DNA of 64,000 bases from an uncultured Dehalococcoidales bacterium (lineage in GTDB: Bacteria > Chloroflexota > Dehalococcoidia > E44-bin15). The position numbers were made by a program, and so were the translations under genes. The stretch covers positions 21,997-85,996 of the forward strand of contig CAYUWM010000001.1 in assembly GCA_964448395.1 (NCBI GenBank), read 5' to 3'. A model generated the notes under the pieces. It made no database searches, was not told the origin of the DNA, and saw only the letters and a program-made list of their open reading frames with translations. Position 1 is the stretch's first letter. Every line of letters starts with the position of its first letter. Shown here piece by piece: positions 3,949 to 50,673 of this stretch.

Positions 3949-4656
3949 TCATCGTTCCAAGTTCTTCAGGATAGCCTCAGCGATGGCAATGTCATCGGGA
4001 GTGGTTACCTTGATGTTGGCGGGTGAGCCGGGGAATATCTTGACTTTATATCCCAGACGCTCCACCAGCGAGGCATCATCGGTGACTCCTCCCTTCGCTT
4101 TACTGTGGGCCTCGCTTATTATATCAAATCTAAATACCTGGGGGGTTTGCACTGTCCACAGGCGATCTCGCAGAAGCGTTTTCTGAACAAATTGATCTGC
4201 AGACACAACCTTAATGGTGTCGCTCACGGGAATTGCCGGGATGGCGGCCCCGCTGTCTCGGGCTGCCTTCAGTGCGTCTCGGATTATGCCCTGGCTCACA
4301 CAGGGACGCGCCCCATCATGAATCATCACCCACTGGCAGCCGGTAAGCCACTGCAGACCCGCCCTTACCGAATCCTGGCGGCGTTCACCGCCGGGGCATA
4401 CATCCCTCACCTTTGAGAGTTTATAGTCATCGATCAGCCGTTTCGCTGCATCCAACTTGTCCTCGGCAATCACCAGAACTATATCCTCAATGTCAGTGCA
4501 AGACTGGAAGGCGCCTAGAGTACGAGCCAGCAGAGGTTTTCCCGCCAGCGGCATGAAGATCTTGTCTGCGCTGGCCATGCGCCTGCCCGCGCCGGCTGCA
4601 ACAACGATTACACCGACCTTGTCCATCACTAAATCACCAAGGGGTTGCATCACCAC
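3949..4656 (-). CDS. ispD: 2-C-methyl-D-erythritol 4-phosphate cytidylyltransferase
   Basis: VGVIVVAAGAGRRM P-loop-like motif and an ispD-ispF pairing. The true start may be ATG 4650 (TGATG overlap with the upstream gene) or ATG 4626. Confidence 0.9.
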   Translation of the reverse strand: MVMQPLGDLVMDKVGVIVVAAGAGRRMASADKIFMPLAGKPLLARTLGAFQSCTDIEDIVLVIAEDKLDAAKRLIDDYKLSKVRDVCPGGERRQDSVRAGLQWLTGCQWVMIHDGARPCVSQGIIRDALKAARDSGAAIPAIPVSDTIKVVSADQFVQKTLLRDRLWTVQTPQVFRFDIISEAHSKAKGGVTDDASLVERLGYKVKIFPGSPANIKVTTPDDIAIAEAILKNLER

Positions 4657-5267
4657 GGGATCAGGAAGTCCAGCAGGAGGCGCAGGGTCCAGTATCCGGC
4701 GAAGGCAACCATCAAGCCTTTAACCGTCTTGCCAGCGAATACCACAAGCATATATTTCCAGAACGGGTAGTGCAGCGCACCGGCGGCAGCCCCCACGATG
4801 TCGAAGAAGAAGTTCGGTATGGCAGAGAACAGGAAAAGCACTATAGTGCCGCGCCGCTGCATCCACTCCCGCAGCTTAGTGTAGACTTTCCTGTTCTGCA
4901 TCGAGCTGCGGCCGCTGAATCCCGCCATATAGGCGGGTATTTCGCCGACGGGTTCACCGAGTCCCGCCATCAATCCCACCAGCCATGGATTGAGTATTGC
5001 ACCCATGATGAAAATGAAAGGCAGGTGCGGCACCGGCACGATTATCACAGCCGCTCCCAATATTGCAATTATGAAAACGCCTAGATAGCCATAAGCCTCA
5101 ACGTCACCGGTTAACCCTCCGCTGAAGTAGATGGCGATGCTGAGGACCACTATCGCAACGATGGTGGTCAGGCTTACCCAGTGTCGCCTGATCCAGCGCC
5201 GCTTGATTACCGGCGCTAGCTCCTCTTCGGCAATAACATCGAGAGCATCCTCGTGTTCATCCATCAT
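4650..5267 (-). CDS. VTT/DedA-type (YqaA-like) membrane protein
   Basis: Multi-TM protein with the G-x-x-x-P-x-E-x-x-x-x-x-AG and SAIPNFFFD-x-x-G-x-AAG motifs of SNARE-associated/VTT domains. The ATG at 5267 is preferred over the TTG at 5294. Confidence 0.7.
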   Translation of the reverse strand: MMDEHEDALDVIAEEELAPVIKRRWIRRHWVSLTTIVAIVVLSIAIYFSGGLTGDVEAYGYLGVFIIAILGAAVIIVPVPHLPFIFIMGAILNPWLVGLMAGLGEPVGEIPAYMAGFSGRSSMQNRKVYTKLREWMQRRGTIVLFLFSAIPNFFFDIVGAAAGALHYPFWKYMLVVFAGKTVKGLMVAFAGYWTLRLLLDFLIPW

Positions 5268-5355
5268 GCTTCTGTGGTGAAAGGTTACAGGCAAGCAGCA
5301 GGGAAGTCAAGGGCAGGCTCGCAAGATTCAATCCCCACGGGGAACGACGGTGATA

Positions 5356-7788
5356 CTATTTACCACTTTTCTTTTTAGATTTAGCAGAGAAAGTGAATCC
5401 GTCAGGGCTTGAGTCGACCGTGACACGGTCGCCCTCTTTGAATTCCCCCTGTAGTATCTTTGTCGATAGTGGGTTCTCAACGCGGCGCTGAAGGGTACGG
5501 CGTAAGGGTCGGGCGCCGAACGCCGGATCGAATCCTTCCTTAGCCAGCTGCGACTTTGCCTCCTCCGTAAGTTCCACGGATATTTTGCGCTCCTCAAGTC
5601 GCTTCTGGATATCCTTCATCATCAGGTCGACGATGAGCTTGATCTGCTCTTCAGTGAGAGGCTGGAATATCACCACCTCATCGAGGCGGTTGAGAAACTC
5701 GGGACGGAAGGTTTTTTTCAAGGCGTCCTCAACGGCACTTTTTCGTCTCTCCATCTCGCCATTTGTCTCCTTGGAAAAGCCTATGGACTGGCGCTGAAAC
5801 TCCTCCGTGCCCAGGTTCGAGGTCATGATCACCACCGTATTCTTGAAATTTACGGTCCTGCCATGCCCGTCGGTAAGCCTGCCGTCCTCCAGGATCTGGA
5901 GCAGGATGTTAAACACGTTGGGGTGAGCCTTCTCCATCTCATCAAGCAGGATCACTTTATACGGGCGGCGGCGCACCGCCTCGGTGAGCTGACCTCCTTC
6001 TTCGTAGCCGATGTAGCCCGGGGGAGCGCCGATGAGCCGCGAAACGGTATGCCTTTCCATGTACTCGGACATATCCAGCCGTACCATGGCCTCTTCGTCA
6101 TCGAACAGGAACTCGGCAAGGGCACGCGCCAGCTCTGTCTTGCCCACGCCGGTAGGCCCGAGGAAGATGAAGCTGCCGATCGGCCGCCGCGGGTCCTTGA
6201 GTCCGGCCCGCGCCCGCCTGATGGACTCGGAAACAACCCTGACGGCATCTTCCTGGCCGATGATCCTCTGGTGCAGCCTCTCTTCCATGTGGAGCAGCTT
6301 CTCGGTCTCCTCCTCCAGCATGCGGGATACGGGGATGCCGGTCCAGCTGGATACCAGCTCAGCGATATCCTCCTCGTCCACCATACCATCGATCTTCTCC
6401 TCCTGGAGCCATGTCTGCTTAGCTTTATTGTATTCTTCCTCGACAGATATCCGCTCCACCTTCAGCCGGGAGGCGCGCTCGTAATCCTGTTTCTCCGATG
6501 CCGCCTCCTCTTCTCGGACCAGTTGCTGCAGTTTCTTTTCCAGGTCCTTCACATTCTTGGGGGCGCTTTCCGTGTCAATTCTTAGCTTGGCTGCCGCCTC
6601 ATCTATAAGGTCAATTGCTTTGTCCGGAAGATAGCGATCGGAGATATAGAGATGGCTCAGATGTGCCGCCGCCTCGAGGGCGGAATCGGTGAACCGGATC
6701 TTGTGATGTGCTTCGTAACGCGGTCGCAGCGCCCGCAGCATCTCGATGGTATCCTCCTCGCTGGGCTCGTCCACGTAGACGGGCTGCAGCCGCCGTTCCA
6801 GCGCGGCATCCTTCTCGATGTGCTCCCGGTATTCATCCAGCGTGGTTGCCCCCACGCACTGCAGTTCGCCGCGGGCTAGGGCTGGCTTGAGCATGTTGCT
6901 GGCATCGATGGCGCCCTCGGCGGCCCCGGCCCCGACCACGGTGTGTATCTCGTCGATAAACAGGACGATTTCGCCCTGGGCCTGGCGAATCTCGTCCATC
7001 ACCGCCTTCAATCGTTCCTCGAACTCGCCGCGGAACTTCGAGCCGGCGACCAGCGCCCCCATGTCGAGCGCTATCACTCGCTTGTTTTTCAGTGAATCGG
7101 GGGCGTCGCCGCTCACGATCATCTGGGCCAGACCCTCCACGATAGCGGTCTTGCCTACGCCAGCCTCCCCGATGATGACAGGGTTGTTCTTGGTGCGCCT
7201 GGTGAGCACCTGCATAACACGTTTGATCTCGTTATCACGCCCGATCACGGGATCGAGTTTCCCCTCCTCGGCGAGCATGGTGAGATCGCGGCTGTACTTC
7301 TCAAGAGCGCCGTATTTGCTCTCGGCGTGGGGGTCTGTCGCACGGTGGCTGCCCCGGATGTCGCGCAACGCCGAATAAAGCTTCTCCTGGTCGATGCCGA
7401 AATCGCTAAGTATCCGTGAAGCATCTCCGTCACGTTCAGCTGCCATGGCTATCAGTATGTGCTCCGTGCCGATGAACTCATCCTTCAGACGGTCGGCCTC
7501 GGCGGCTGCGTTCTCCAGCAAGTTTACCGTCCGTGGCGTGGTATAGACCGTCGCTTCCTCGTATGAAACCTGGGGCGTCTGTGCCAGCGCCTCTTCAACG
7601 CGGCTGCGCACCTCGCTGGCTTTTACCCCCAGCTTCTTCAATATATCTCCGGTCAGGCCTTTAGGCTGCTGCAGCATAGCGAGCAGTATGTGCTCCACAT
7701 CCCACTGGCTGTGCTTATAGCTGCGCACCAGTTCCTGCGAGCGGGCCAGCGTTTCCTGTGCCTGTTCGGTGAATCTATCCTGCCTCAT
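5356..7788 (-). CDS. clpC: ATP-dependent Clp protease ATP-binding subunit, ClpC type
   Basis: Two AAA+ modules (GEAGVGKT and GPTGVGKT Walker A). A short middle domain carries a UVR-like [10 protein letters not shown] motif. An IGF loop (QSIGFSK) for ClpP docking is present. 810 aa. Confidence 0.85.
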
Positions 7789-8234: not shown

Positions 8235-9176
8235 TTACCCTTTAGGCCGAAGCTTTCTCAATTCCTCAAAAAGCTGCTTCTCCCGCTCCTTCAAGTTCTC
8301 CGGTATAACTACTTTTACCTTGGCGATGAGGTCACCCCTTGAGGTATCTCCCATCACCGGCATCCCCTGCTGCTTCAAGCGGAACATCTTGCCGTTCTGG
8401 GTCTCCGGCGGGATCTTAAGGGAGAGATTCTTCCCCTTTAGCGACGGAACGCCAACCTCTCCACCGAGGACGGCATCAGCAAGGGGTACATCAACCTCAA
8501 CATTAATATCGTTCCCCTTGCGCTGGAACACGGGATGGGGTCTAACTGAGACAACGAGATACAGGTCGCCCCGCGGGCCTTCGCCCGGGCCGGGCTCGCC
8601 CTTTCCGCTGACCTTAATACGAGAGCCGTCCTTGACCCCCGATGGCACCTTGACCTCGAGGCGGTGGCCCAAAACGTCCTCAACGACCCGGGTGGTGCCG
8701 TAGAAGGCCTCTTCTAGGGTCACCTCGGCAGGATACTCAACGTTCCTCCCACGGCGCGGCCTCTGAGGCGCGACCCTGGCGCCGGCACCGCGGGCGAAAG
8801 TGGTGAATATATCACTAAGATCGCTGTAGTCGCCCATGTCGCCGAAATCGACGAACTGAACCCTGGTGCCCTGGCTTGGCCGCTTCGAGGAATCGGAAAA
8901 ACCGGTAAAACCGCCGAACGGCCCCTGCTGCTGGGCATCGAGCTGGTCGGCATATTTCCAGTTATCGCCGTACTTGTCGTAGGCCTTGCGCTTCTTCGGA
9001 TCGGAGAGGACCTCGTGGGCAGTGTTGATATCCTTGAACCTCGCCTCCGCCGATTTATCCCCTGGATTGACATCGGGGTGGTGCTTGCGTGCCAGCTTGC
9101 GAAAGGCCTGCTTGATATCCTTATCAGAGGCCGTTTTGCTCACTCCCAACACATCGTAAAAGTTCTTAGATGCCAT
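8235..9176 (-). CDS. cbpA: DnaJ-class co-chaperone without zinc finger (CbpA type)
   Basis: J domain ([29 protein letters not shown]), a G/F-rich linker and a C-terminal substrate-binding domain. There are no CxxCxGxG repeats. Confidence 0.85.
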
Positions 9177-9197
9177 AAATACCCCTAATCTAAAGTC

Positions 9198-9226
9198 ATT
9201 ATATAATAGATATGTTAATTTGTCAA
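9198..9226 (-). promoter_or_regulatory. sigma70-type promoter for the cbpA-hspR-clpC operon
   Basis: The minus strand reads TTGACA (9226-9221), a 17-nt spacer, then TATAAT (9203-9198). Both hexamers are perfect consensus. It sits about 22 nt upstream of the cbpA ATG. Confidence 0.7.
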
Positions 9227-9315: not shown

Positions 9316-9855
9316 ATGAACCTGATACGCTGGGATCCGTTCCGGGAGCTGGTTGGGATGCGTCAGACGATGGACCGCCTGCTTGAAGGCGGGTACGTAA
9401 GGCCTTCGCGGCCGCTGGTAGGGTGGACCGAATGGGCGCAGCCTTCACTCGACATGTACCAGACGCCCAAGGAGGTGGTGATTAAGGCCGCCCTGCCCGG
9501 TGTTGACCCTGAGGATGTCGAAATCGAGATCGCGGGGAATACGCTGACAATCAAAGGCGAGATTAAGCAGGAAGAGAAGTCGGAAGAGGATGACTACCTC
9601 TGCCGCGAGTGCCACTATGGCAGCTATTACCGGGCCATCACCCTGCCTCAGTCAGTCAAGGGCGATAATGCAGAGGCCACCTTCGAAGACGGCATCCTCA
9701 CCCTGACTGTACCTAAGACTGAGGTGGAGAAGCCCAAGAAGATAGAGGTCAAGGCCAAAAAGGCTATCGAAGGCGGGCCAAATAAGCCCAAAACCGTCAA
9801 GTCTAGGGCGTCCAAGAAGAGCCCGAAGAAGAAAAAACCTGCTAAGGGCAAATAA
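9316..9855 (+). CDS. Hsp20/alpha-crystallin small heat-shock protein with a lysine-rich C-terminal tail
   Basis: MNLIRWDPFREL N-terminus and an alpha-crystallin core (A-LPGV-x-x-EDV-x-I..G-x-LTI-x-GE..A-x-F-x-DGILT-x-T-x-PK). AAGGAGG at 9301-9307 favours the ATG at 9316 over the GTG at 9307. Confidence 0.9.
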   Translation: MNLIRWDPFRELVGMRQTMDRLLEGGYVRPSRPLVGWTEWAQPSLDMYQTPKEVVIKAALPGVDPEDVEIEIAGNTLTIKGEIKQEEKSEEDDYLCRECHYGSYYRAITLPQSVKGDNAEATFEDGILTLTVPKTEVEKPKKIEVKAKKAIEGGPNKPKTVKSRASKKSPKKKKPAKGK

Positions 9856-9878
9856 ACCTGTCACAAAAATGCTTAGAG

Positions 9879-9910
9879 GAGAGTGGAGGAGATCCACTCT
9901 CTTTCTATTT
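9879..9910 (+). terminator. intrinsic terminator after hsp20
   Basis: A 9-bp stem (GAGAGTGGA 9879-9887 with TCCACTCTC 9893-9901), a 5-nt loop, then the T-rich run TTTCTATTT. Confidence 0.65.
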
Positions 9911-30306: not shown

Positions 30307-32388
30307 ATGTCCAGACAGTTCCCGTTAGAGAGAATAAGGAATATCGGCATTATCGCGCATATCGATGCAGGTAAAACAACGCTTACTGAGAGGATCCTGT
30401 ATTACACCGGCATAACCTACAAGCTGGGGGATGTGGATGATGGGACTGCGGTAATGGATTGGATGACCCAGGAAAAAGAGCGCGGTATTACTATTACCGC
30501 TGCTGCCACCACCTGCCACTGGCAGGATCATAAGATCAACATTATAGATACCCCGGGTCATGTGGATTTCACTGCCGAAGTCGAGAGGAGCCTTCGGGTG
30601 CTCGATGGAGGCATAGTGGTATTCGATGCGGTGGCCGGCGTACAGCCTCAGTCGGAGACCGTGTGGCGGCAGGCCGACCGCTACAAGGTCCCGCGGATCT
30701 GTCTGGTCAACAAGATGGATCGCACCGGGGCCGATTTCTTCCGCACCTTGAAAATGATCAGGGAACGGCTGGGTGCAACTGTGATACCGGTGCAACTGCC
30801 TCTGGGTGCAGAGGAGTCGTTTTCCGGGATAATAGATCTGGTTCATAAGCAGTTGCTAACCTTCTCCGGTGATCGGGGGGAAGAGCCTCAATGTGGCGAT
30901 ATCCCCGTCGAGTATGAGGAGATCGCGAGTCGATATCGTAATGAAATGATCGAAAAACTGGCCGAGTTTGATGATCAATTGATGATCCTCTATCTTGAAG
31001 GTGAAATCATCGATGCCGATGATATAAGCGGGGCTATCAGGCGAGCCACAATTGCGAATAAGGTGGTGCCGGCCCTCTGCGGGAGCGCGCTGCGCAATAA
31101 GGGGGTCCAGTCTGTGATGGATGCCGTTGTAGCTTATCTCCCCGCCCCATCCGATGTGCCCCCGGTGATAGGTATAGACCCCAGGGACGGCAAAGAGCTT
31201 CAGCGGTCTCCCAGCGATGGCAGCCCTTTTACCGCATTGGCCTTCAAGGTTGTCTCGGACCCTTTCATCGGCAGGTTAGTCTATATAAGGGTTTACTCCG
31301 GGACAGCTGAAGCCGGTGCTCAGGTATATAACTCAAGGAGCGAGCACAAGGAGAGGATCGGGCGTCTGCTGCAGATGCATGCCAACAGTCGTGAGGACAT
31401 AAAGCGGGTCGAGGCAGGTGATATTGCAGCCGCCATGGGTTTGAAGGATACCTTTACCGGCGATACACTGTGTCACCAGAACGCTAACATAGTGCTGGAG
31501 AGGATCCGGTTCCCGCTCCCCGTTTTGATGGTCACAATCGAGCCCAAGTCGCGGTCCGAACAGGATCGGCTCGATATCGCCTTGACCAAACTAGCCCAAG
31601 AGGACCCCACGTTCACCGCTCGTTACGATGAGGATACCGGTCAAACACTAATATCGGGCATGGGAGAGCTTCACCTCGATATTGTGGTGGAACGCCTGCT
31701 AAGCGAGTTCCAGGTGGAGGCACATGTAGGCAAGCCCCGTGTTGCCTACAAGGAAACTATCTCCAAGTCGGTCAAGGCCGAGGGGCGTTTTATCCGACAG
31801 AGTGGGGGCAGGGGGCAGTACGGCCATGTACTGCTCGAGTTGCACCCCGGCGAGCGGGGCTGCGGCTTCGAGTTCGTTAATGAAATCAAGGGTGGGACTA
31901 TTCCCAAAGGGTTCATTCCGCACATTGAGAGCGGGATCAGGGACGCGATGGAGGGTGGCGTTTTGGGAGGCTATCCCCTAGTAGATATTAAAGCTGTACT
32001 GTACGATGGAAGCTACCACGAGGTTGATTCCAGCGACATCGCTTTCAAGGCCGCTGGGGCCATAGCGCTGAGAGACGGTGCTAGGAAAGCCAGCCCTATC
32101 CTCCTCGAGCCTGTAATGAAAGTAGAGATCGTCACCCCTGAGGAATTCATGGGTGACATCCTGGGAGACCTCCACTCCAAACGGGGGCAGGTAACCAGTA
32201 TCGATAGCGAGAGGGACACCAAGATAGTGCACTGCTTGATCCCGCTGGCTGAGACCTTCGGCTATACTACCGATCTGAGGTCCATGAGCCAGGGGCGGGC
32301 CAGCTACACGATGGAGTTCTATCGCTATGAAGTGCTGCCCCCCGATCTGGCGGAGCAACTCATCATCAAAGTGGGAGGGCTGGCCTGA
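30307..32388 (+). CDS. fusA: elongation factor G
   Basis: [23 protein letters not shown] and NKMDR GTPase motifs. The ATG at 30307 ([12 protein letters not shown]) is preferred over 30295. Confidence 0.97.
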
Positions 32389-32696
32389 TGCCGAAGCAGA
32401 AGATCCGCATAAAACTCAAGGCCTTCGATCACCGCATACTGGATCAATCGGTTGAGCAGATCGTGGAGGCCGCCGAGCAAACCGGAGCCAAGGTAGTGGG
32501 GCCGGTACCCATGCCCACCCGGATAAAGAAGTTTTGCGTGATCCGCTCACCTCATGTGGATAAGGATTCCCGCGAGCAGTTCGAGATACGCACCCACAAA
32601 CGCCTTATCGATATACTGGATCCATCCTCAAAGACAATCGATACACTGACGCGGCTGGACCTGCCGGCGGGAGTGGACATTGAGATCAAGATTTAG
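32388..32696 (+). CDS. rpsJ: 30S ribosomal protein S10
   Basis: [17 protein letters not shown]...[19 protein letters not shown] overlap with fusA. Confidence 0.97.
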
Positions 32697-32716: not shown

Positions 32717-33358
32717 ATGATAACGGGGATTATAGGAAGGAAACTCGGTATGACCCAGGTCTTCACTGAAGACCGGACGGTCGTGCCGGTTACCGCCATC
32801 GAGGCCGGCCCCTGTTTCGTGACCCAGATAAAGCGAGCAGCGGAGGATGGCTACAATGGCGTACAGCTGGGTTTCGGTGAGGCCAAGCGCCTTTCGTCAG
32901 CAGAGAAGGGTCACCTGAAGAAGCTGGGTATGCTCAAGCACCTGCGTGAATTCGAAGCCGATGATATCGATTCCGTCGCAGTAGGTCAAAAGATAGACGT
33001 GGGCATCTTCCAGCCTGGAGATCTGGTTAATGTAGCCGGCATATCTAAGGGCAAGGGATTCCAGGGTGGCGTCAAGCGGCACGGTTTCGCCGGCGGGCCC
33101 AAGACACACGGCCAGTCAGATCGCCATCGCGCACCAGGATCAGTAGGGGCAACATCCTCGCCGGGCAGGGTGTTCAAGGGACTCAGAATGGCGGGGCATA
33201 TGGGCAACCAAAATGTGACCATAAAGAAGCTCAGGGTGGTACAGGCGGATGCGGAACGCAACCTACTGCTGGTTCGCGGTGCGGTACCGGGGGCCAGAAA
33301 CGGCCTACTTAAAATAATGAAAGTAGCTAACCATGGGGGAAGCCCTGTCGAGGAGTAG
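32717..33358 (+). CDS. rplC: 50S ribosomal protein L3
   Basis: MITGIIGRKLGMTQVF N-terminus and GKGFQGGVKRH motif. Stop TAG at 33356-33358. Confidence 0.95.
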   Translation: MITGIIGRKLGMTQVFTEDRTVVPVTAIEAGPCFVTQIKRAAEDGYNGVQLGFGEAKRLSSAEKGHLKKLGMLKHLREFEADDIDSVAVGQKIDVGIFQPGDLVNVAGISKGKGFQGGVKRHGFAGGPKTHGQSDRHRAPGSVGATSSPGRVFKGLRMAGHMGNQNVTIKKLRVVQADAERNLLLVRGAVPGARNGLLKIMKVANHGGSPVEE

Positions 33359-33361
33359 ATA

Positions 33362-34561
33362 CTGTTTAAATTTGCGATATCCAGTGCCTTCAGGAGGAAG
33401 GGGATCGCTATATTTGCGATCTTCGGCACTTCCTTGGGTATAGCGCTAATGACCGTTTTACTGAGCATCTCCGCAGGCATGGATGACATGATGAACACTA
33501 TGATGACCGAGCTGGCAGGAGGGATTGGGATCTACCCTGCCGATAACCCCATGGCCTTCCTTACCGGTGGGGGTACACCATTCTCGGCCTCATATACATC
33601 CGATATCGAAGAAATTGACCACGTGGAGAGCGTTACCCCGATGGTCCTGTGGTTCATACCCACGCCTAGGGAGGGTGACCAGTTCGGCGCCGACTTCGGC
33701 GACCCCATGGGCGTCACTATAAGGGGGGTAGACTTTACGCAGGATGCCGAGCTGGACGGCCCCAGTGTTCACCTGACCGAGGGCAGCGCTCCAAAACCGG
33801 GTGAAAACCAGGTGATACTGGGAAACACGCTTGCCGCGTTTGCTCTTGCTGAGGGTGAGGAATTTGCCGACATCGGGGGAGAGTTCACTCTACTATCGGC
33901 AGAAAATCAACCGGTCACCTTCACCGTAGTGGGAATGTTTGAGACGGGAAGCAGCAGTATCGACTTTTACCCCTACACCGATATAGAGAGTGCAAGAGAG
34001 CTAGTCGGCATTGCCGGCGATGAGGTTAATTTTATTCACGTTGAAGTTGACACTACGGAGAACGTGGAGACGGTGAATGACGCTCTAATTGACCTGTTCG
34101 AGCGAGAGGGGGTTCCGGTACAGACAATGATCGCCACCGAACTTCTGGGATCCTTCAACGAGATGATGAGCACCATGAGCGGCTTCCTGTGGATCGTTTC
34201 GCTGGTGGCGGCGGTAGCCGGCGGCATCTCGATATTCATCGTCATGCTTATTTCAGTGATCGAACGTACCAAAGAGTTCGGCATACTGAAGGCTGCCGGC
34301 TGGTCCAATAACAATATCATCGGTTCGGTCATCGTGCAGTCTCTGGCGGTTGCTCTTCTGGGGGCGGCTGCAGGCCTGGGCTTCGGGTATTTAACGGGCC
34401 TCGGCATCGATCAATATCTAAATGTCAGCATAACCCTTATCACCTGGCAACTGGTACTTACAATAATAGGATTCGGGGTGCTGATGGGGGTAGTGGGAGG
34501 CCTTTACCCGGCACTCAGGGCGGCGCAGGTAAGCCCCATAGAGAGCATGAGGGCCGTATAG
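33362..34561 (+). CDS. MacB/FtsX-family ABC transporter permease (start codon uncertain)
   Basis: FtsX domain (ERTKEFGILKAAGW ... YPALRAAQVSPIESMR) and a ~200-aa extracytoplasmic domain. The family-typical N-terminus LFKFAISSAFRRKGIAIFAIFGTSLGIAL is encoded from 33362, upstream of the track's TTG at 33434. It begins right after the rplC stop, with only CTG/ATA as possible initiators. Confidence 0.8.
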   Translation: MFKFAISSAFRRKGIAIFAIFGTSLGIALMTVLLSISAGMDDMMNTMMTELAGGIGIYPADNPMAFLTGGGTPFSASYTSDIEEIDHVESVTPMVLWFIPTPREGDQFGADFGDPMGVTIRGVDFTQDAELDGPSVHLTEGSAPKPGENQVILGNTLAAFALAEGEEFADIGGEFTLLSAENQPVTFTVVGMFETGSSSIDFYPYTDIESARELVGIAGDEVNFIHVEVDTTENVETVNDALIDLFEREGVPVQTMIATELLGSFNEMMSTMSGFLWIVSLVAAVAGGISIFIVMLISVIERTKEFGILKAAGWSNNNIIGSVIVQSLAVALLGAAAGLGFGYLTGLGIDQYLNVSITLITWQLVLTIIGFGVLMGVVGGLYPALRAAQVSPIESMRAV

Positions 34562-35320
34562 GTGGCTGTTATGGAAGAACGCAGGACAAAGGCTGAACGT
34601 GGTGTAACAATATCCGATGCCAACTTCTGGCGCGATAACATCCTTGTCGTTCAAGATCTAACCAAGATATACGGCAAAGGCCCTACGGAAGTAGAAGCCC
34701 TCAAGAAGATAAACTTGAATGTGAAAAGAGGGGAGTTCATCGCCATACTGGGACCATCGGGGAGCGGCAAGACCACCTTCCTCAACATGCTGGGGGCTTT
34801 GGACCGGCCCACCAGCGGCCGCGTGGTTATCGATCGCATAGAGTCGAGCAGGGTTCCCGAGCGGCTGCTGTACCGGATACGGCGCGCCAAGCTCGGTTTT
34901 ATCTTCCAGACCTATTACCTGGTACCGACGCTGAATGCGTTACAGAATGTGCTCACCCCCGTATTGCCGGTAATAAATGGACGGCGGTATCATGGACGTG
35001 CCACCCGGTTGCTTCAGGTTGTAGGGCTCAAGAACCGTATGCATCATAAGCCGGGTGAACTCTCCGGCGGTGAGCAGCAGAGGGTAGCAATCGCCCGCGC
35101 CCTGATACTCAATCCAAAAGTGATCCTTGCCGATGAGCCTACCGGCAATCTGGATACCAGGACCAGTATGGAGATCATGGAATTGCTAAATCGCCTAAAC
35201 GTGAGGGGTGGAAAAACGTTGATTGTAGTTACTCATGACCGGCGCCTCGCCGAGAGTGCTGACAGGATACTGTACCTGATCGACGGGCAGTTGTTCGACG
35301 TCGCACCGGAGGGATTCTAA
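34562..35320 (+). CDS. ABC transporter ATP-binding protein (MacB/LolD-like)
   Basis: GPSGSGKTT Walker [16 protein letters not shown] signature, [11 protein letters not shown] Walker B. The GTG at 34562 abuts the permease stop; an alternative ATG is at 34571. Confidence 0.9.
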
Positions 35321-35977
35321 ATGCCACAGTTTGCGGTTCATAATGTTCAGGGAGAGGTCGTCGGCAACGTGAAGCTGCGTGACGACATATTTGCGGTGCC
35401 GATGAATCACGCCGTGGTTCACCAGGCTCTGGTGAGGCAACTGGCAAACGCCCGCCAGGGGACCGCCAGCAGCAAGACGCGCGGGCAGGTCTCAGGAGGG
35501 GGAGCCAAACCTTTCCGACAGAAGGGAACGGGGAGGGCGAGACGGGGAAGCTCTCGATCACCGCTGCTTAAAGGTGGCGGCGTAATATTCGGGCCCCAGC
35601 CTCGGGATCACCGACAGGATATGCCGAAGAAGATGCGCCGCCTCGCCCTGAGGTGTGTTCTATCAGCGAAGGCAGCAGAGAACGAGATGATCGTGGTGGA
35701 TAAGCTGAAAATGAAGGGGCCGAAGACAAGCGAGATGGCCCAAATACTGGAGGCGCTGGGGGTAGACACTTCGGTAATCATCGTAACCGCCGAGCCGGAT
35801 ATCAATATATACAAGTCGGCACGCAACATAAGCCAGACGAAAACACTGCCGGCAAGCATGCTCAATATCGGTGATCTGCTATCCCACCGGAAAATCATCC
35901 TTGCCAAGAAGGCGATACGGGCGGTTGAAGAGATTGCAGCAGCGGAACCGAAGAATGCGGTGAAATCAGCTACTTAG
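35321..35977 (+). CDS. rplD: 50S ribosomal protein L4
   Basis: KTRGQVSGGGAKPFRQKGTGRARRGS motif. The ATG directly follows the ABC ATPase stop, and the SD GGAGGG (35308-35313) lies inside that gene. Confidence 0.97.
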   Translation: MPQFAVHNVQGEVVGNVKLRDDIFAVPMNHAVVHQALVRQLANARQGTASSKTRGQVSGGGAKPFRQKGTGRARRGSSRSPLLKGGGVIFGPQPRDHRQDMPKKMRRLALRCVLSAKAAENEMIVVDKLKMKGPKTSEMAQILEALGVDTSVIIVTAEPDINIYKSARNISQTKTLPASMLNIGDLLSHRKIILAKKAIRAVEEIAAAEPKNAVKSAT

Positions 35978-37854: not shown

Positions 37855-39048
37855 TTGGGGCATAAAGTTCATCCGATTGGTTTCAGGCTGGGTTTTGTTA
37901 AGGATTGGCAGGCGAAGTGGTATGCCGATAAGGCCTATACCGTTCTTATCCAAGAAGACCTGAGAATCAGAAAGGCTATAGAGTATAAATATGGCTTTGA
38001 TGATATATCACGGGTCGAAATCGAGCGCTCGGCTAATCAGGTGACGGTAGCGGTCTATACAGCCCGTCCAGGAATAGTAATCGGCAGGGGCGGTCAGCGG
38101 GTTGACGAGATGAGGCAAGTGCTGGAGAAGACAGCTGGAAAGCGGGTGCGCCTGAATATCCTCGAGGTTGCTCAACCAGAACTGGACGCTTACCTTGTTG
38201 CTAGGAGCATCGCTCAGCAGATGGAGCGGAGAATATCACACCGGCGCGCTATGAAGCAGGCAATCTCCCGGGCGATGGAGAGGGGGGCACAGGGGATCAA
38301 GATCACCTGCGCCGGCCGGCTTTCCGGATCGGAATATGCAAGGAGGGAGACACTGCATCAAGGAAGGGTGCCGCTTCATACCCTGCGAGCAGATATCGAT
38401 TACGCGCAGGCGGAGGCACATACTACGTTGGGGCGAACCGGGGTGAAGGTCTGGATTTACAAAGGCGATGTTATCTCTGAGGCAGAAAAGATGTTCATGG
38501 AGAGGTCACTGCTGACCCCCGTTGAGGAAGTGGCACCTGCCGAGATTGAACCTGATGTAACAGAGGTTGCCACACTCAAGGACAGTGCGGGTGATGCCGA
38601 GGCGGAGGTAAAGGAGACGGCGGAGGTAGTGAACCTTGAGAAAACAGCAGAGGAACGAGGAGCGGCAGAGGAGGAAAATAAAGCAACGGCAGAGGTAGAA
38701 ACCGAGGGCGAGGCGAAGGCAGAGACTGTGATCGCGGATGAGCCCAAGGCTAAAGTTAAGGCGAAAGCCAAGATAAAGAAAGAAGCTGCCACAACGGAGG
38801 AGCCGAAAGCTAAAGCCAGGTCTAAGGCAAAAGAAGGGGACAAGGCCGCGGCCAAGACGGCGGAGAAGACCGGAGCCCGATCTAAGACCAAGGCCAAGAA
38901 GGAAATCGAGCCGGCAGATAAGCCTGCAACCAAAACCAAGAGCAAGGCTGAGAAAAAGACCGACACCGGGATATCAGGTGATTCCGAGACGAAATCCAAG
39001 AAAAAGGCGAAGCCCAAAGAGCCGGCAGAACCACAAAATGCTGATTAA
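37855..39048 (+). CDS. rpsC: 30S ribosomal protein S3 with a ~175-aa low-complexity C-terminal extension
   Basis: [14 protein letters not shown]-terminus (TTG start), then KH and S3-C domains to about aa 215, then an acidic Glu/Ala-rich segment followed by a Lys/Ala-rich segment. 397 aa in total. Confidence 0.93.
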
Positions 39049-43927: not shown

Positions 43928-45271
43928 GTGACCCAGGAGAGAAAGAGCACCCGACCACAGCTCCTGCAAGCGATGATCGACGCCTTCGGGCAATCAGATC
44001 TCAGGCGCAAGATCTTAATTACCCTCGGCCTGCTCTTAGTTTTTCGCTTTGTCGCCCATGTGCCGGTTCCAGGCGCTGATTTAGCAGCGATGAAGGAGTT
44101 CCTCGGCGGGGGGGGCAGTGGCGGCGCCCTGGTAGGTATGCTTGATCTCTTCAGCGGTGGCGCCATGAGGAACATGAGCATCGCCGCCATGGGCGTCTAT
44201 CCGTACATAACCGCAATGATAATCATGCAGCTAATGGTTCCGATTATTCCTCGACTGCAGGCGATCTCCCGTGAAGGGGATGCCGGGAGAGCCAAGATAA
44301 ACATGTACACCCATTGGCTGACCGTGCCTCTTGCGGTGCTACAGGGATATGGGCAATTGATATTGATTCAACAGTACGGCGTGATAAGCGATATAGGTCT
44401 TTCCGGCCCCAATCTGCTGCCTACAGCCACAATGGTGATAGCGATGACGGCGGGTACGATGTTCCTCGTTTGGCTGGGAGAGTTGATAACTGAATACGGT
44501 ATCGGTAATGGCGTATCGCTGATCATCTTCGGCGGCATCGTGGCGACCCTTCCGCAACTGATCGGTCAAGGCTATCTCGTCCCGGGGTCTGCGGGGGGTA
44601 TGTGGGGGTTGATACTGTTCTTGATTATGGCACTGGCAATCCTGGTAACCATCGTTATCTTCACCGAGGCTCACCGGCGAATCCCGGTGCAGTACGCACG
44701 CAGCTTATACCGGGGGGGCAAGATGTATCGCCAATCTGGCGGCACTCACATCCCAATCAGAGTAAACTCAGCGGGCATGATACCGGTGATATTCGCTATG
44801 GCATTGTTGATATTCCCCGGTGTGGTAGCCGGCTTTTTCGCCAACCCGCCAAGCGAAGTGGGGAATTTCGCCAACACCATCGTGAACCTGTTCTCATCGA
44901 CACACTGGTTCTATTGGCTGGCGTACTTCGTGCTGGTACTGTTCTTTACCTTCTTCTATGCCATGATAATCTTTCAGCAACAGAACCTGGGGGAAACCTT
45001 GCAGCGGCAGGGAGCGTTCCTCCCCGGGATCCGCCCGGGCAAGGCCACCCAGCAATACCTGAACCGGGTGCTAACCAGGGTTACCTGGGGTGGAGCTCTG
45101 TTCCTGGCTGTCGTTGCCATATCGCCGTTTATTATTCAAAGCATCACCGGTGTGCAGGCTCTGGTGCTGCCGTCGATCGGCATGCTCATCGTAGTTGGCG
45201 TCGCCCTGGATACCATGAGGCAATTGGAGTCCCAGCTTGTAATGCGCCGGTATGAAGGCTTCCTTAAGTAA
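43928..45271 (+). CDS. secY: preprotein translocase subunit SecY
   Basis: 10-TM protein with LGLLLVFRF..PG and MGV-PYITA-II-QL motifs. Confidence 0.97.
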   Translation: MTQERKSTRPQLLQAMIDAFGQSDLRRKILITLGLLLVFRFVAHVPVPGADLAAMKEFLGGGGSGGALVGMLDLFSGGAMRNMSIAAMGVYPYITAMIIMQLMVPIIPRLQAISREGDAGRAKINMYTHWLTVPLAVLQGYGQLILIQQYGVISDIGLSGPNLLPTATMVIAMTAGTMFLVWLGELITEYGIGNGVSLIIFGGIVATLPQLIGQGYLVPGSAGGMWGLILFLIMALAILVTIVIFTEAHRRIPVQYARSLYRGGKMYRQSGGTHIPIRVNSAGMIPVIFAMALLIFPGVVAGFFANPPSEVGNFANTIVNLFSSTHWFYWLAYFVLVLFFTFFYAMIIFQQQNLGETLQRQGAFLPGIRPGKATQQYLNRVLTRVTWGGALFLAVVAISPFIIQSITGVQALVLPSIGMLIVVGVALDTMRQLESQLVMRRYEGFLK

Positions 45272-45283
45272 GGAGATATTGTA

Positions 45284-45931
45284 GTGCATGTTGTACTTCT
45301 GGGGGCGCCGGGGTCAGGCAAAGGAACGCAGGCCGGGTTGGCAGCGGATAAGCTGGGGATCAGCCATATCGCCTCCGGAGATCTGTTCCGCGCCGCGGTC
45401 AACAGGGGGGAAGAACTGGGCAGCCAGGTAAAATCTTACATGGAGAAGGGGCTTCTGGTCCCCGATGATATAACGATCAAGATGATAATGCAGCGAATAA
45501 GCGAGCCTGATTCCGCCACCGGATTTATGCTTGACGGGTTCCCGCGGACACTGGAACAGGCCAAGGCGTTGGATAGGGCGATGGGGGAGAGTGGGTCGGA
45601 AATCGATCGGGTTATCTATATCAATGTTCCAACCGATGAACTGGTTAGGCGATTGGGGGGGCGCTTCATCTGCCGTGAATGCCAGACACCGTACCACACG
45701 GTATCGTCCCCACCCAAGACCCCCGGGAAGTGCGATAAGTGTGGCGGGGAACTATACCAGCGCTCCGACGATACCCCGGAGACGGTAAAGAAAAGGATCA
45801 GCGTCTACCTATCAGATACCGCACCGCTGATTGAATACTACAATGCTTCAGGTAAGCTGGTTGAGATCAGCGGGGAAGGAAATATCGACAGCATCAGCAG
45901 AAGCCTTATAGGTGCGATTACCGAGGGTTGA
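45284..45931 (+). CDS. adk: adenylate kinase (zinc-lid form)
   Basis: LLGAPGSGKGTQ P-loop. The lid carries CRECQ...CDKCGG. Confidence 0.97.
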   Translation: MHVVLLGAPGSGKGTQAGLAADKLGISHIASGDLFRAAVNRGEELGSQVKSYMEKGLLVPDDITIKMIMQRISEPDSATGFMLDGFPRTLEQAKALDRAMGESGSEIDRVIYINVPTDELVRRLGGRFICRECQTPYHTVSSPPKTPGKCDKCGGELYQRSDDTPETVKKRISVYLSDTAPLIEYYNASGKLVEISGEGNIDSISRSLIGAITEG

Positions 45932-45932
45932 T

Positions 45933-46685
45933 ATGGGCATAATAATCAAGTCGCAGCGTGAGCTGGATATTATGAGAAAAGCGGGCCGCATCGTGGCCAC
46001 TATACTTGACATATTGCAGAAAAAGGTCGAACCTGGTATCATCACTGAAGAGCTCGATAGAATAACGGTTGAGGAGATGAAGCGACACGGGGTCACCTCC
46101 TCTTTCAAGAACTACCGGGGCTTCCCGTCGCATCTGTGCGTGTCCGTGAATGAGCAGCTGGTCCACGGCATCCCCGGTAAGCGAATGCTCAGAGAGGGAG
46201 ACATCGTCTCTCTGGATTTCGGGGCGGTGCATGATGGGTTCCAAGGCGATGCGGCAGTCACCGTTGGAGTGGGGAATATCAGCCCTGAGGCAAGAAGCCT
46301 GATCGAGACGACGGAGGGGGCATTGCAGGCGGGGATCAAGGATGCCCGCAGTGGAGCCCATTTGGGTGACGTCTCGGCAGCAATTCAATCCTACGTGGAA
46401 TCGCGTGGATTTACGGTGGTGCGTGAGTATGTCGGGCACGGCATCGGCCGCCAGATGCACGAACCCCCCCAGATACCGAACTACGGCACGCCGGGGCAGG
46501 GTCCTGTATTGTCCGAAGGGATGACCCTGGCTTTGGAACCGATGGTCAATGTAGGCGGTTGGCGCACCAAGGTAGCGGGCGACGGGTGGACCGTTACCAC
46601 TGCCGACGGCAGCCTGTGTGCGCATTTCGAGAATACCATAGCGATTACCGGTGGAGAGGCGGAGGTCCTCACCAGGATCAATTGA
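45933..46685 (+). CDS. map: type I methionine aminopeptidase
   Basis: MGIIIKSQRELDIMRKAG N-terminus and metal-ligand regions (D-x-G ... HGIG ... E-P). The ATG at 45933 lies just after the adk stop. Confidence 0.95.
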   Translation: MGIIIKSQRELDIMRKAGRIVATILDILQKKVEPGIITEELDRITVEEMKRHGVTSSFKNYRGFPSHLCVSVNEQLVHGIPGKRMLREGDIVSLDFGAVHDGFQGDAAVTVGVGNISPEARSLIETTEGALQAGIKDARSGAHLGDVSAAIQSYVESRGFTVVREYVGHGIGRQMHEPPQIPNYGTPGQGPVLSEGMTLALEPMVNVGGWRTKVAGDGWTVTTADGSLCAHFENTIAITGGEAEVLTRIN

Positions 46686-48545: not shown

Positions 48546-49571
48546 TTGTCTGAGACAGTTACTCCACAGATAGAATGCGCAGAGCTCTCTGATAAATATG
48601 GACGTTTTGTCATTGAGCCCATGGAGAGAGGCTTTGGCATCACTCTGGGTAACGCCCTGAGACGGGTCATCCTCAGTTCGCTCCCCGGGGCTGCCGTTAC
48701 CTGGATCAGGATCGACGGCATTCAGCATGAGTTCTCAACCATACCACACATGAAGGAAGACACGGTTGATTTCCTGCTAAATGTCAAAACCATCAGATTG
48801 CGTCCCCTCACATCACACAGCGGCATTCTCAAGCTGGAAGCCGAGGGTGAGGGGGATGTTTTAGCTGGGAATATCCAGCCGTCGGCCGATTTCGAGGTGG
48901 TCAACCCCGATCTACATCTGGCCACACTGGATTCCACGAAGGCTAAACTGAACGTGGAGTTCAATATTGAAAAGGGTACCGGTTATCGGCCTGCCGGTCA
49001 GGGGTACCAGGGTTGGGAGCAGGGAGAGCACCTGCCCATCGGGGTGATCCCGGTGGACGCTATCTTTACCCCGGCACGTAAAGTCAACTATACAGTGGAG
49101 ACCACCAGCGTCGGGCAGCGCAGCTATGAAAGGCTAATACTCGATGTGTGGACCGACGGAACTACATCGCCGGTGGATGCTGTCAGCCACAGTGCTCACC
49201 TGCTGATAGAGCAGTTTCAGCTGTTCTACGAGCTGGCAAGGGTGCCGCTCAGGGTCGGTGAAAAGCAACCCCGTCTGCCAGTTCCGTTGGAGCAATACAA
49301 TCTGCCGATAGAAGAACTCGGCCTTTCCGTTCGCACTTTCAACTGCCTCAAGAGGGCCGGGATCACCAAGGCGGGTGAACTGCTGGAGAAGAGCGATGAT
49401 GAGCTGATTAACATAAAGAACTTCGGACAGAAGGCCCTGGATGAAGTTAAGCAGCAGCTCATAGCGAAGAGGTTCATCTCAGAGGATGAAGAGGCGGATA
49501 GTGAGCCTCTTCGAGAAGCAGGGGATTATTCAGCGCCAGCGGACGAAATGACAGCGGAGGACATCCCTTAA
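48546..49571 (+). CDS. rpoA: DNA-directed RNA polymerase subunit alpha
   Basis: [23 protein letters not shown] and a C-terminal domain ([17 protein letters not shown]). The TTG at 48546 lies 7 nt after GGAGG; the track's GTG at 48528 is an alternative. The protein ends in an acidic tail. Confidence 0.93.
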
Positions 49572-49924
49572 TGAGACACCACGTGAGCGGCAGGCGGCTG
49601 TCGAGGCCTACAGGACACAGGACGTTAATGTACCGTAACATGGTTACCGACCTGCTGCGTTATGAGAAGATCACCACCACTGAGGCCAAAGCCAAAGAGG
49701 TTCGAGGCATAGCGGAGAAGGTGATAACCCTGGGCAAGGACGGCTCTCTTCACAGCCGCCGCCGGGTGCTATCGATGATCAGCGATAACAAGGTGGTTGC
49801 CAAACTTTTCGGGGAATTAGCTCCGAGATATGCCAAACGCGGCGGCGGCTATACCCGAATTGTAAAGCTCGGCCCCCGGCTGGGCGATGCTGCACCTATG
49901 GTGCAATTGGAATTGGTTGAATGA
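49571..49924 (+). CDS. rplQ: 50S ribosomal protein L17
   Basis: MRH-x-x-GR-L-R-x-x-HR-x-x-M-RN motif. Confidence 0.95.
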
Positions 49925-50673
49925 ATACGAGGATTGCCCTTATAGTGGAATATGACGGTGCCAGATATCATGGTTCTCAAGTTCAGGAAGATTTGCCCAC
50001 AATTCAGGGTGAACTGGAGAACGCGCTGGAGAAGGTCACCGGGGAGAAGATCCGCACTGCATTTGCCGGGCGCACGGATCGAGGCGTTCACGCCAGAGGG
50101 CAGGTCGTTGCCTGTGACACAGAATGTTCTCTGGAACCGATGACTATCGCTCGAGCGCTCAATCACCATTTACCAGATGATATAGCTATCAAGAATGCCA
50201 TTGCAGTGAATCATGACTTCGATCCGAGGAGAGACGCCTTGAGCCGGGAATACTGCTATTACATCTGGAACGATACCAGCCCTTCTCCTCTGCGTCGCTG
50301 GAATGCGCTTTTCGTACAACAGCCGCTCGATATCGCAGGGATGGATAGGGCATGTCAGGCTATCGTCGGCACATACGATTTTGCCCCCTTCGCCAGCTCA
50401 CTGGACGACCTTCGCAACACGGTGCGTACTGTATACCGCGCAAACACGTTTCGAGAAGGCTCCATGGTGACCTGTCATATTGAAGCCAATGCCTTTTTGC
50501 CTCACCAGGTCCGCAATACGGTAGGATCCCTGCTGCAGGTGGGCCTTGGCAAAATAGACGTGGCAGGTTTCGAGGAGATTTTAGAGTCGAAGAGGGTTGC
50601 GGTTGCTGGCCCCCCCGCCCCTCCCCATGGGCTGTGTCTGTTGAAAGTAAATTACAATGGAAAGATGCAATGA
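49921..50673 (+). CDS. truA: tRNA pseudouridine(38-40) synthase
   Basis: YDGA-YHG-Q and [13 protein letters not shown] motifs. 4-nt overlap with rplQ. Confidence 0.93.

Follow-up and report, generated by a model that had tools for sequence, protein, structure and literature searches.

A type VII ABC permease-ATPase gene pair between rplC and rplD in the S10 ribosomal operon of an uncultured Dehalococcoidia clade

The DNA analyzed here, referred to as the window, is a 64,000-nucleotide stretch from an uncultured Dehalococcoidales bacterium (GenBank assembly GCA_964448395.1, contig CAYUWM010000001.1, positions 21,997 to 85,996 of the forward strand). Its subject is a pair of genes for an ATP-binding cassette (ABC) transporter that occupies positions 33359-35320, between rplC and rplD. 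The region opens a ribosomal supercluster on the plus strand in which str, S10, spc and alpha are fused, with the order rpsG, fusA, rpsJ, rplC, permease, ATPase, rplD, rplW, rplB ... secY, adk, map, infA, rpoA, rplQ, truA, rplM and rpsI. A preliminary description, made from the sequence alone, had placed a MacB/FtsX-type ABC pair between rplC and rplD, and both the Pfam assignments and the coordinates agree with it. The relevant features are as follows; the Shine-Dalgarno (SD)-like sites were read directly from the sequence.

32717..33358, plus strand: rplC, encoding ribosomal protein L3; the open reading frame (ORF) opens at TTG 32699, the likely start is ATG 32717 and the stop is TAG 33356-33358; Pfam Ribosomal_L3.
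33350..33355, plus strand: SD-like site GAGGAG, within the last rplC codons and 6 nucleotides (nt) 5' of CTG 33362.
33362..34561, plus strand: permease of a type VII (MacB/FtsX-type) ABC transporter; 399 codons from the probable CTG start, stop TAG 34559-34561; Pfam MacB_PCD and FtsX.
34571..35320, plus strand: ABC ATPase of the LolD/MacB/MJ0796 type; likely start ATG 34571, alternative start GTG 34562, stop TAA 35318-35320.
35308..35313, plus strand: SD-like site GGAGGG for rplD, within the 3' end of the ATPase gene.
35321..35977, plus strand: rplD, encoding ribosomal protein L4; its ATG abuts the ATPase TAA; Pfam Ribosomal_L4, E-value 2.4e-69.

The gaps amount to 3 nt between rplC and the permease gene, 0-9 nt between the permease and ATPase genes and 0 nt between the ATPase gene and rplD. 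The location of both SD sites within the preceding genes, and the abutment of the ATPase TAA on the rplD ATG, were found in the sequence as previously described. Translation of rplC most likely begins at ATG 32717, which yields a protein of 213 amino acids that is 100% identical to a database entry of the same length (P0121). The C-terminal extension of L3 (...SPVEE) holds the SD site of the permease gene, and an ending of the form ...SPV(E/K/Q)E-stop is also present in the related loci L001 and L036-L038. The geometry of this SD site is matched in relatives, where AAGGAG or AGGAGG is followed at 6 nt by TTG or CTG.

To exclude an artefact of assembly, which the preliminary description had raised as a concern, independent metagenome contigs were compared. 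An L3 protein 100% identical to that of the window is encoded on five contigs, each from a different JGI metagenome sample, and all five contigs read ...GAGGAG TAG ATA CTG TTT... at the junction of rplC and the permease gene. The source samples include JGI 3300062498 and 3300062788. Three contigs (L039-L041) align gap-free to the window with 99.9% identity over 3.7-5.4 kb. Two of these (L039 and L040; different JGI samples, 99.9% identity over 5.2-5.4 kb) match the window exactly at all three junctions. Given that contigs from different samples carry identical junctions, misassembly is excluded. Exact-product look-ups for the window ATPase and for L4 gave no match.

A scan for the permease motif over one genome per GTDB species yielded 32 loci, and synteny was assessed by tblastn with the window fusA, rpsJ, rplC, permease, ATPase, rplD, rplW and rplB. 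Comparison of rplC-rplD synteny, proposed earlier as a check, revealed that the arrangement is conserved across relatives: the order rpsJ-rplC-permease-ATPase-rplD-rplW-rplB, or as much of it as the contig holds, is present in 24 of the 32 loci. These 24 belong to metagenome-assembled genomes labelled Dehalococcoidales, Dehalococcoidia or Chloroflexota, with one labelled 'bacterium' only; the 32 loci include no cultured Dehalococcoides or Dehalogenimonas. The same order was observed on further metagenome contigs (L035-L041), which gives about 30 related contigs altogether. Identity of the embedded permeases to that of the window ranges from 93% down to 43%, and every embedded pair is flanked by rplC and rplD. 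Spacing is tight throughout the clade. The distance from the rplC stop to the permease start is -8, +1, +3 or +10/11 nt, the permease-ATPase gap is 0 to +10 nt and, where related loci allowed clean scoring, the distance from the ATPase stop to the rplD start is -1 to +4 nt.

A neighbour-joining tree of the permeases unites the operon-embedded proteins in one clade, within which two copies that do not lie beside ribosomal genes (L008 and L014) are nested. Outside this clade, at 36-41% identity, are L020 and L023-L027 (Patescibacteria, Saccharimonadales, an unclassified bacterial bin and a Nanoarchaeia-labelled bin) and L028-L029 (Chloroflexota bins), none of them in a ribosomal context. The pair in L020 (DASVHF010000025.1), a bin labelled Candidatus Nanoarchaeia, is 38% identical and groups in this tree with L027 of the Patescibacteria group, which could reflect horizontal transfer or a mis-binned contig.

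The ratios of non-synonymous to synonymous substitution rates (dN/dS) between the window and L001 are 0.089 (permease) and 0.086 (ATPase), compared with 0.01-0.12 for the flanking ribosomal-protein genes and fusA; both transporter genes are thus under purifying selection. Given the clade-wide order, the tight spacing and the low dN/dS values, the arrangement is old and under selection, and it looks vertically inherited. Recent horizontal acquisition was considered and rejected on the basis of the flat GC content across the insert (0.54-0.56) and the single clade formed by the embedded permeases. The term "inserted", as used previously in the sense of a recent event, is thus not appropriate for an arrangement that is old and clade-wide. 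Two loci, L033 and L034, have a plain rplC-rplD junction without the pair, and both are nested among carriers in a rough neighbour-joining tree of concatenated fusA and ribosomal proteins, calculated without support values, which suggests secondary loss. In L033, the rplC-rplD spacer (4586-4686) is non-coding and unusually long at ∼100 nt; it may be a deletion scar.

Two further observations concern the permease gene itself. Within window positions 33500-34100, in the portion of the permease gene for the extracytoplasmic domain, nucleotide identity to L001 reaches 0.92-0.94 against a baseline of 0.78-0.83 and a maximum of 0.91 in rpsJ, and the synonymous divergence (dS) of the permease gene is 0.43 compared with 0.6-1.5 in neighbouring genes; this segment may be a recent recombination tract. 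The permease frame is split by a frameshift in L021 (3931-3986) and in L030 (6657-6678). Given that a near-identical protein from another assembly (P0100) is intact, the frameshift in L021 is probably an assembly error.

The ABC pair is not the only guest in the S10 clusters of these organisms. A gene for an HD-domain protein of ∼320 amino acids lies between rpsJ and rplC in L007 (4413-5375) and in L034 (3045-4004) and shares 4 nt with the start of rplC; L007 has this gene in addition to the ABC pair, and L034 has the HD-domain gene only. L030 contains additional ORFs of 190 amino acids between rplD and rplW (8630-9202) and of 132 amino acids between rplW and rplB (9507-9905). Such variety suggests that the S10 operon of this class tolerates insertions in general. 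A gap of ∼450 nt separates rplW and rplB in L021.

In the preliminary description, the permease frame was said to begin at the codon after the rplC TAG. The frame is indeed open from 33359, and its start can be refined to CTG 33362; the lack of a canonical start codon in the permease gene had been overlooked. There is no ATG, GTG or TTG in the frame ahead of TTG 33434. An alignment of 31 homologues revealed a conserved N-terminus (xFxFxIxNAFRRKGIAxFAIxGTALGxALM...), and full-length relatives start with M, V or L at the position of the CTG 33362 codon. Among the genome loci, including that of the window, this position is occupied by ATG in 6, GTG in 6, TTG in 8 and CTG in 3 (17 of 23 non-ATG). 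CTG is retained in the window, L001 and L036-L038, the last three with permease identities down to 60%, and has a separate origin in L010; in each case a GGAG-type SD site is located ∼6 nt 5' of the start. Between the CTG and the first ATG (33449), pairwise comparison over 30 codons gave 183 synonymous and 66 non-synonymous codon differences. Given that synonymous differences dominate, this stretch evolves as coding sequence and is translated. The absence of a canonical start at the conserved N-terminus, the coding constraint upstream of the first ATG and the SD site 6 nt upstream are together consistent with initiation of the permease at CTG 33362, a near-cognate start codon. In Escherichia coli, CUG initiates at ∼1-2% of the level of AUG, compared with 10-100% for GUG and UUG, and the confirmed non-canonical starts are two only, the AUU codons of infC and pcnB (bioRxiv 10.1101/063800).

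The public gene calls P0001-P0009, P0012, P0017, P0018, P0020 and P0024 begin at an internal Met and give proteins of 357-371 amino acids, corresponding to 89-93% of the frame. Given that standard gene callers disallow CTG starts, these permease calls are truncated. Those of the CTG-start sub-clade lack ∼30 residues, comprising the N-terminal helix and half of the first transmembrane helix (TM1), and the database permease entries of this clade are thus wrong. The gene call for L035 is instead over-extended into rplC, giving 422 amino acids.

A start for the ATPase at GTG 34562, directly abutting the permease stop, had also been described. The adjacency stands, but the start is more likely ATG 34571. 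In 20 of 21 scorable loci, all except L021, an ATG located 9-10 nt past the permease stop is a candidate start for the ATPase, whereas only about half of the loci have a GTG immediately following that stop. In the window, the equivalent codon is ATG 34571, 5 nt after the sequence AGGTGG at 34560-34565, and the ATPase probably starts there. The permease stop codon is TAG in 21 of 22 scorable loci, and its retention is likely to be explained by the fact that this TAG belongs to the AGGTGG SD site of the ATPase ATG 9-10 nt downstream.

The earlier statement that no promoter or terminator is apparent at the junctions is borne out by consensus scanning and RNA folding. At the junctions, the consensus scan revealed nothing resembling a promoter or terminator, and counts across the region were not above those for shuffled sequence. 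Predicted RNA structures at the three junctions were not more stable than those of shuffled sequences (z = 0.68, -0.22 and +1.75), with a similar result for two relatives; the RNA at the ATPase-rplD junction (z = +1.75) is less structured than the shuffles. A coupling hairpin and a hidden terminator were therefore discarded as possibilities, since no junction has a structure more stable than its shuffles. An Rfam scan of the whole window returned one tRNA only, with no ribosomal leader or riboswitch near the pair. Thus, the pair adjoins ribosomal-protein genes of the same strand without a break, and neither consensus sites nor stable hairpins lie between the genes. It is embedded in the S10 operon so tightly that no space is left for intergenic signals of its own and, given the lack of intergenic space, would be transcribed within the fused str-S10-spc-alpha unit. 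Because stop and start codons lie close together, termination-reinitiation is conceivable at these junctions, and expression of the pair is probably translationally coupled to that of its neighbours. Co-transcription and coupling, as proposed earlier, are supported by the gene order and short gaps in the about 30 related contigs.

The domain content of both proteins identifies the transporter class. Pfam assigned MacB_PCD (E-value 7.6e-17, 62.7 bits, cut-off 27) and FtsX (PF02687; E-value 6.5e-17, 62.1 bits, cut-off 25.5, residues 279-393) to the permease and ABC_tran (7.7e-33, 114 bits) to the ATPase. The AlphaFold2 model of the permease (pLDDT confidence 81.6) contains helices at residues 14-52, 259-302, 304-312, 317-354 and 363-389, with a mixed alpha/beta domain spanning 55-258. 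The modelled architecture comprises an N-terminal amphipathic helix, a long TM1/stalk, an extracytoplasmic domain of ∼205 residues, TM2/stalk, a short coupling helix, TM3 and TM4. A Foldseek search against the PDB returned 65 matches with E-values of 0.001 or below, and the best 50 of these 65 are all MacB, Lol, YtrF, HrtB, Bce, YbbP, YknZ or FtsX structures. The top match is 5xu1_M, Spr0695 of Streptococcus pneumoniae (E-value 5e-18, TM-score 0.68), with LolE, MacB, YtrF, HrtB, YbbP and BceB next; the Foldseek probability is 1.00 for 5xu1, LolE, MacB, YtrF and HrtB. FtsX structures appear only in the 46th and 50th places among the best 50 of the 65. In the translated ATPase, the Walker A (GPSGSGKT), signature (LSGGEQQR), Walker B (ILADEP) and H-loop (THD) motifs are intact. 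Its sequence matches in the PDB include MJ0796 (2.3e-65) and 5xu1_A (1.6e-58), as well as LolD and MacB, and its top NCBIfam matches are LolD, MacB, YbbA, FtsE and DevA.

Hidden Markov model classification, suggested earlier as a check, thus matched the superfamily domains, but no NCBIfam equivalog cut-off was reached by either protein. Scores against lolCE (TIGR02212) and LolD (TIGR02211) were 85.8 and 231, compared with cut-offs of 362.45 and 307.75, which does not support a LolCDE or LolDF system. The FtsE score (TIGR02673) was 196.2 compared with 264.85, and the gene order is permease then ATPase, so that the pair does not qualify as FtsEX. For MacB (NF007826), the permease scored 58.3 and the ATPase 207.4 against a cut-off of 966, and the two are encoded by separate genes, unlike the MacB fusion of a MacAB-TolC system. 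The FtsX domain over TM2-TM4, the MacB_PCD extracytoplasmic domain with four-transmembrane topology and the intact ATPase of the LolD/MacB/FtsE class are those of a type VII ABC transporter. Given that no equivalog cut-off was reached, the pair is assigned to the type VII superfamily but to no characterised subfamily. No membrane-fusion partner of the MacA/HlyD type was found adjacent to the pair, among the window ORFs or in the Pfam scan of the ten unassigned ORFs.

The relatives outside ribosomal operons offer an indication of ancestry. In L008, the copy outside the operon is directly preceded by a MarR gene on the same strand (5404-5934), and the same bin also holds an embedded copy (L015). 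The Patescibacteria-type homologues L023 and L024 follow TetR genes, likewise on the same strand (5098-5691 and 305-898, respectively). TetR or MarR genes are thus present in three of nine out-of-operon neighbourhoods, with unrelated genes in the rest, and no membrane-fusion protein was found around the out-of-operon homologues (9 loci). A second MacB-type permease gene lies downstream in L024 (4140-5411). A repressor gene followed by an exporter gene is the usual layout of inducible efflux systems. Given that out-of-operon relatives follow TetR/MarR genes, descent from an efflux system and a role as a constitutive exporter are favoured, with modest confidence.

We consider that these observations are best accommodated by the following scheme. 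The pair is an old, vertically inherited guest in the S10 operon of an uncultured Dehalococcoidia clade and encodes a stand-alone type VII ABC transporter, which would be expressed by coupling to its neighbours and act as a constitutive exporter. Ribosomes that complete rplC at TAG 33356 would encounter the SD site inside rplC and restart 3 nt further on at CTG 33362. Translation of the ATPase would restart 0-9 nt past the permease stop, and that of rplD directly past the ATPase stop. The weak start codon (CTG here, mostly TTG or GTG in relatives) would serve as a throttle that holds the transporter at a small fraction of ribosomal-protein output, although both are made from a shared and very abundant mRNA. 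The ancestor would have been a TetR/MarR-controlled efflux pair whose move into the operon hard-wired its expression to growth. The pump itself may be a housekeeping exporter, made constitutively, of a toxic amphipathic small molecule or peptide, which is the least certain step. To this scheme as a whole we assign a probability of roughly 60%.

Several points weigh against it. The efflux case draws on only three of nine neighbourhoods outside the operon and on a structural match with 19% identity, and no gene for a membrane-fusion partner is present within the 64-kb window. The absence of the pair from L033 and L034 implies that it is dispensable in some lineages. Between the window and L001, amino acid identity is 93% for the permease and 82-83% for L3 and L4, which would fit a housekeeping role in the cell envelope equally, as would constitutive, growth-linked expression. 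With regard to expression, the sigma-70 consensus was applied to a Chloroflexota genome, so that promoters within coding sequence could be present. Initiation at ATA 33359, or reinitiation without a strict start codon, could replace initiation at CTG 33362, and the start-codon efficiencies are E. coli values that may not fit the initiation machinery of Dehalococcoidia.

The envelope role just mentioned is the foremost alternative, although we regard it as doubtful. According to this alternative, the pair would work as a machine like FtsEX, LolCDE or YtrEF, in which the extracytoplasmic domain, driven by ATP, moves to extract, hand over or activate an envelope component such as a lipid, a lipoprotein, the S-layer or a division factor, and its location in S10 would allow envelope growth to track ribosome synthesis. 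The best NCBIfam matches, lolCE and LolD, point in this direction, albeit below cut-off, as do LolE, LolC, YtrF and FtsX among the Foldseek matches and the higher conservation of the permease relative to L3 and L4 between the window and L001. Constitutive, growth-linked expression would place the pair alongside secY, adk and map in the spc operon of the window. However, the subfamily scores are far under the curated cut-offs (85.8/362, 231/308 and 196/265), no partner gene is adjacent, the pair is missing in two nested relatives, and an association of out-of-operon relatives with TetR/MarR genes is atypical of housekeeping machines.

A bolder version of the exporter scheme, which we think unlikely, is that the pump is functionally wired to translation, for example by exporting a ribosome-targeting natural product or a toxic by-product of translation, with its dose fixed by reinitiation at CTG or TTG. 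If so, each round of L3 synthesis would license a small, set amount of transporter, and this would represent a new, stoichiometric coupling between ribosome and envelope. Still harder to sustain is dedicated protection of the ribosome, in which the transporter would export inhibitors of the macrolide, pleuromutilin or peptide type whose binding sites are close to L3, L4 and L22, hence its location. The family name, the resistance pumps among the closest solved homologues (MacB and Spr0694-Spr0695), the TetR/MarR genes that accompany out-of-operon relatives and the conserved rplC-rplD position are consistent with this proposal. By contrast, none of the results connects the substrate with ribosome inhibitors, resistance pumps are as a rule induced on demand and not hard-wired, the literature search gave no support, and the unrelated guests elsewhere in the same operon of relatives make the location look opportunistic. 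The link to ribosome-targeting compounds, or to L3, L4 and L22, drawn in the preliminary description is therefore not upheld, in view of the unreached subfamily cut-offs, the unrelated guests and the two relatives without the pair.

It is very unlikely that the pair is a neutral hitch-hiker that landed by chance, has no selected function and was kept because precise excision is improbable or polar. The other guest genes in related S10 clusters, the two relatives without the pair and the frameshifted permease frames in L021 and L030 could be cited in its favour. Such an explanation is strongly disfavoured by dN/dS values of about 0.09 for both genes and by retention of the protein down to 43% identity with motifs intact, and the frameshift of L021 is not shared by the near-identical P0100. 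An origin in a chimeric junction, or in readthrough of TAG 33356 to give an L3-permease fusion, has a negligible probability: junctions are identical in contigs from different samples, and although rplC shares the permease frame in the window, L001 and L036-L038 (split in the window by TAG plus one codon), the frame sharing is confined to this one sub-clade, the genes are mostly out of frame in other sub-clades (8-nt overlap or 11-nt spacer), the rplC stop is TAA in L036, and TAG is also the ordinary stop of the permease gene.

Several further features of the supercluster may be recorded. The fusA stop overlaps the rpsJ start (TGATG, 32386-32390) with no tuf between them, and the fusA-rpsJ adjacency is also present in related loci; given this overlap and the lack of an intervening tuf, the str and S10 operons are fused. 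The secY, adk and map genes lie at 43928-46685. As previously described, rplQ (49571-49924) overlaps truA (49921-50673), with no ecf genes between them. Ribosomal protein S3 (rpsC, 37855-39048) has 397 amino acids, including a C-terminal tail of ∼190 residues rich in Lys, Ala and Glu (38470-39048) that contains no Pfam domain and is the least conserved stretch in comparison with L001 (identity 0.54-0.60).

The S10 operon is among the most rigidly conserved of bacterial gene orders, and the clade-wide presence of a transporter within it shows that even S10 admits foreign genes. The placement is surprising and well conserved; the transporter class itself is ordinary. The locus may provide a natural case in which very different protein outputs are obtained from one mRNA by means of weak starts and termination-reinitiation. 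Since the transporter is abundant among uncultured Dehalococcoidia of the subsurface and of sediments, its characterisation in a heterologous host would be worthwhile.

Comparison with known systems places the pair more precisely. The closest structural counterpart is Spr0694-Spr0695 of S. pneumoniae (PDB 5XU1), a MacAB-like pump of a Gram-positive organism that, like the window pair, consists of a separate ATPase and a four-transmembrane permease with a MacB-type extracytoplasmic domain. Both window subunits give strong sequence matches to this system, yet permease identity is only 19%. The pneumococcal system has the membrane-fusion gene Spr0693 upstream and the order ATPase then permease, whereas in the window pair the permease gene precedes the ATPase gene, no partner gene is present in the window and the location is inside a ribosomal operon. 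The best solved sequence match of the ATPase (2.3e-65) is MJ0796, a LolD-like ATPase of Methanocaldococcus jannaschii (PDB 1F3O and 1L2T) that belongs to the same MacB/LolD/FtsE class of nucleotide-binding domain. The window ATPase has an N-terminal extension of ∼25 residues relative to MJ0796, whose gene is presumably not in a ribosomal operon. LolCDE and LolDF have the same fold and domain order as the window pair, and LolE, LolC and LolF are among the PDB matches; even so, the window scores are far below the equivalog cut-offs. Lol systems sort outer-membrane lipoproteins in diderm bacteria, which is not an established role in this lineage.

With respect to location, secY-adk-map in the spc operon and, in Bacilli, ecfA1-ecfA2-ecfT downstream of alpha are likewise non-ribosomal genes that are co-transcribed with ribosomal ones, and they include a membrane protein (SecY) and ABC ATPases (Ecf). 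Those guests lie at operon ends or in spc and are very widespread, whereas the window pair lies inside S10 between rplC and rplD, is of type VII rather than ECF, and is restricted to one Dehalococcoidia clade. The ecf arrangement is described in a survey of 204 Gammaproteobacteria and Bacilli genomes, which reports 163 rearrangement events in the supercluster and places most of the insertions it analysed in detail between operons (PMC8046335). Literature searches returned no report of ABC, MacB or FtsX genes in S10 or between rplC and rplD, nor of ribosomal gene order in Dehalococcoidia. Thus, guests in ribosomal operons are known, but a MacB-type pair between rplC and rplD with CTG, TTG or GTG starts was not found described in the literature. 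As regards the start codon, the throttled AUU starts of infC and pcnB in E. coli are likewise near-cognate codons that selection retains on a gene whose output must be low or controlled. The window permease would differ from these in the use of CUG instead of AUU and in combining the weak codon with a predicted termination-reinitiation event 3 nt past the upstream stop.

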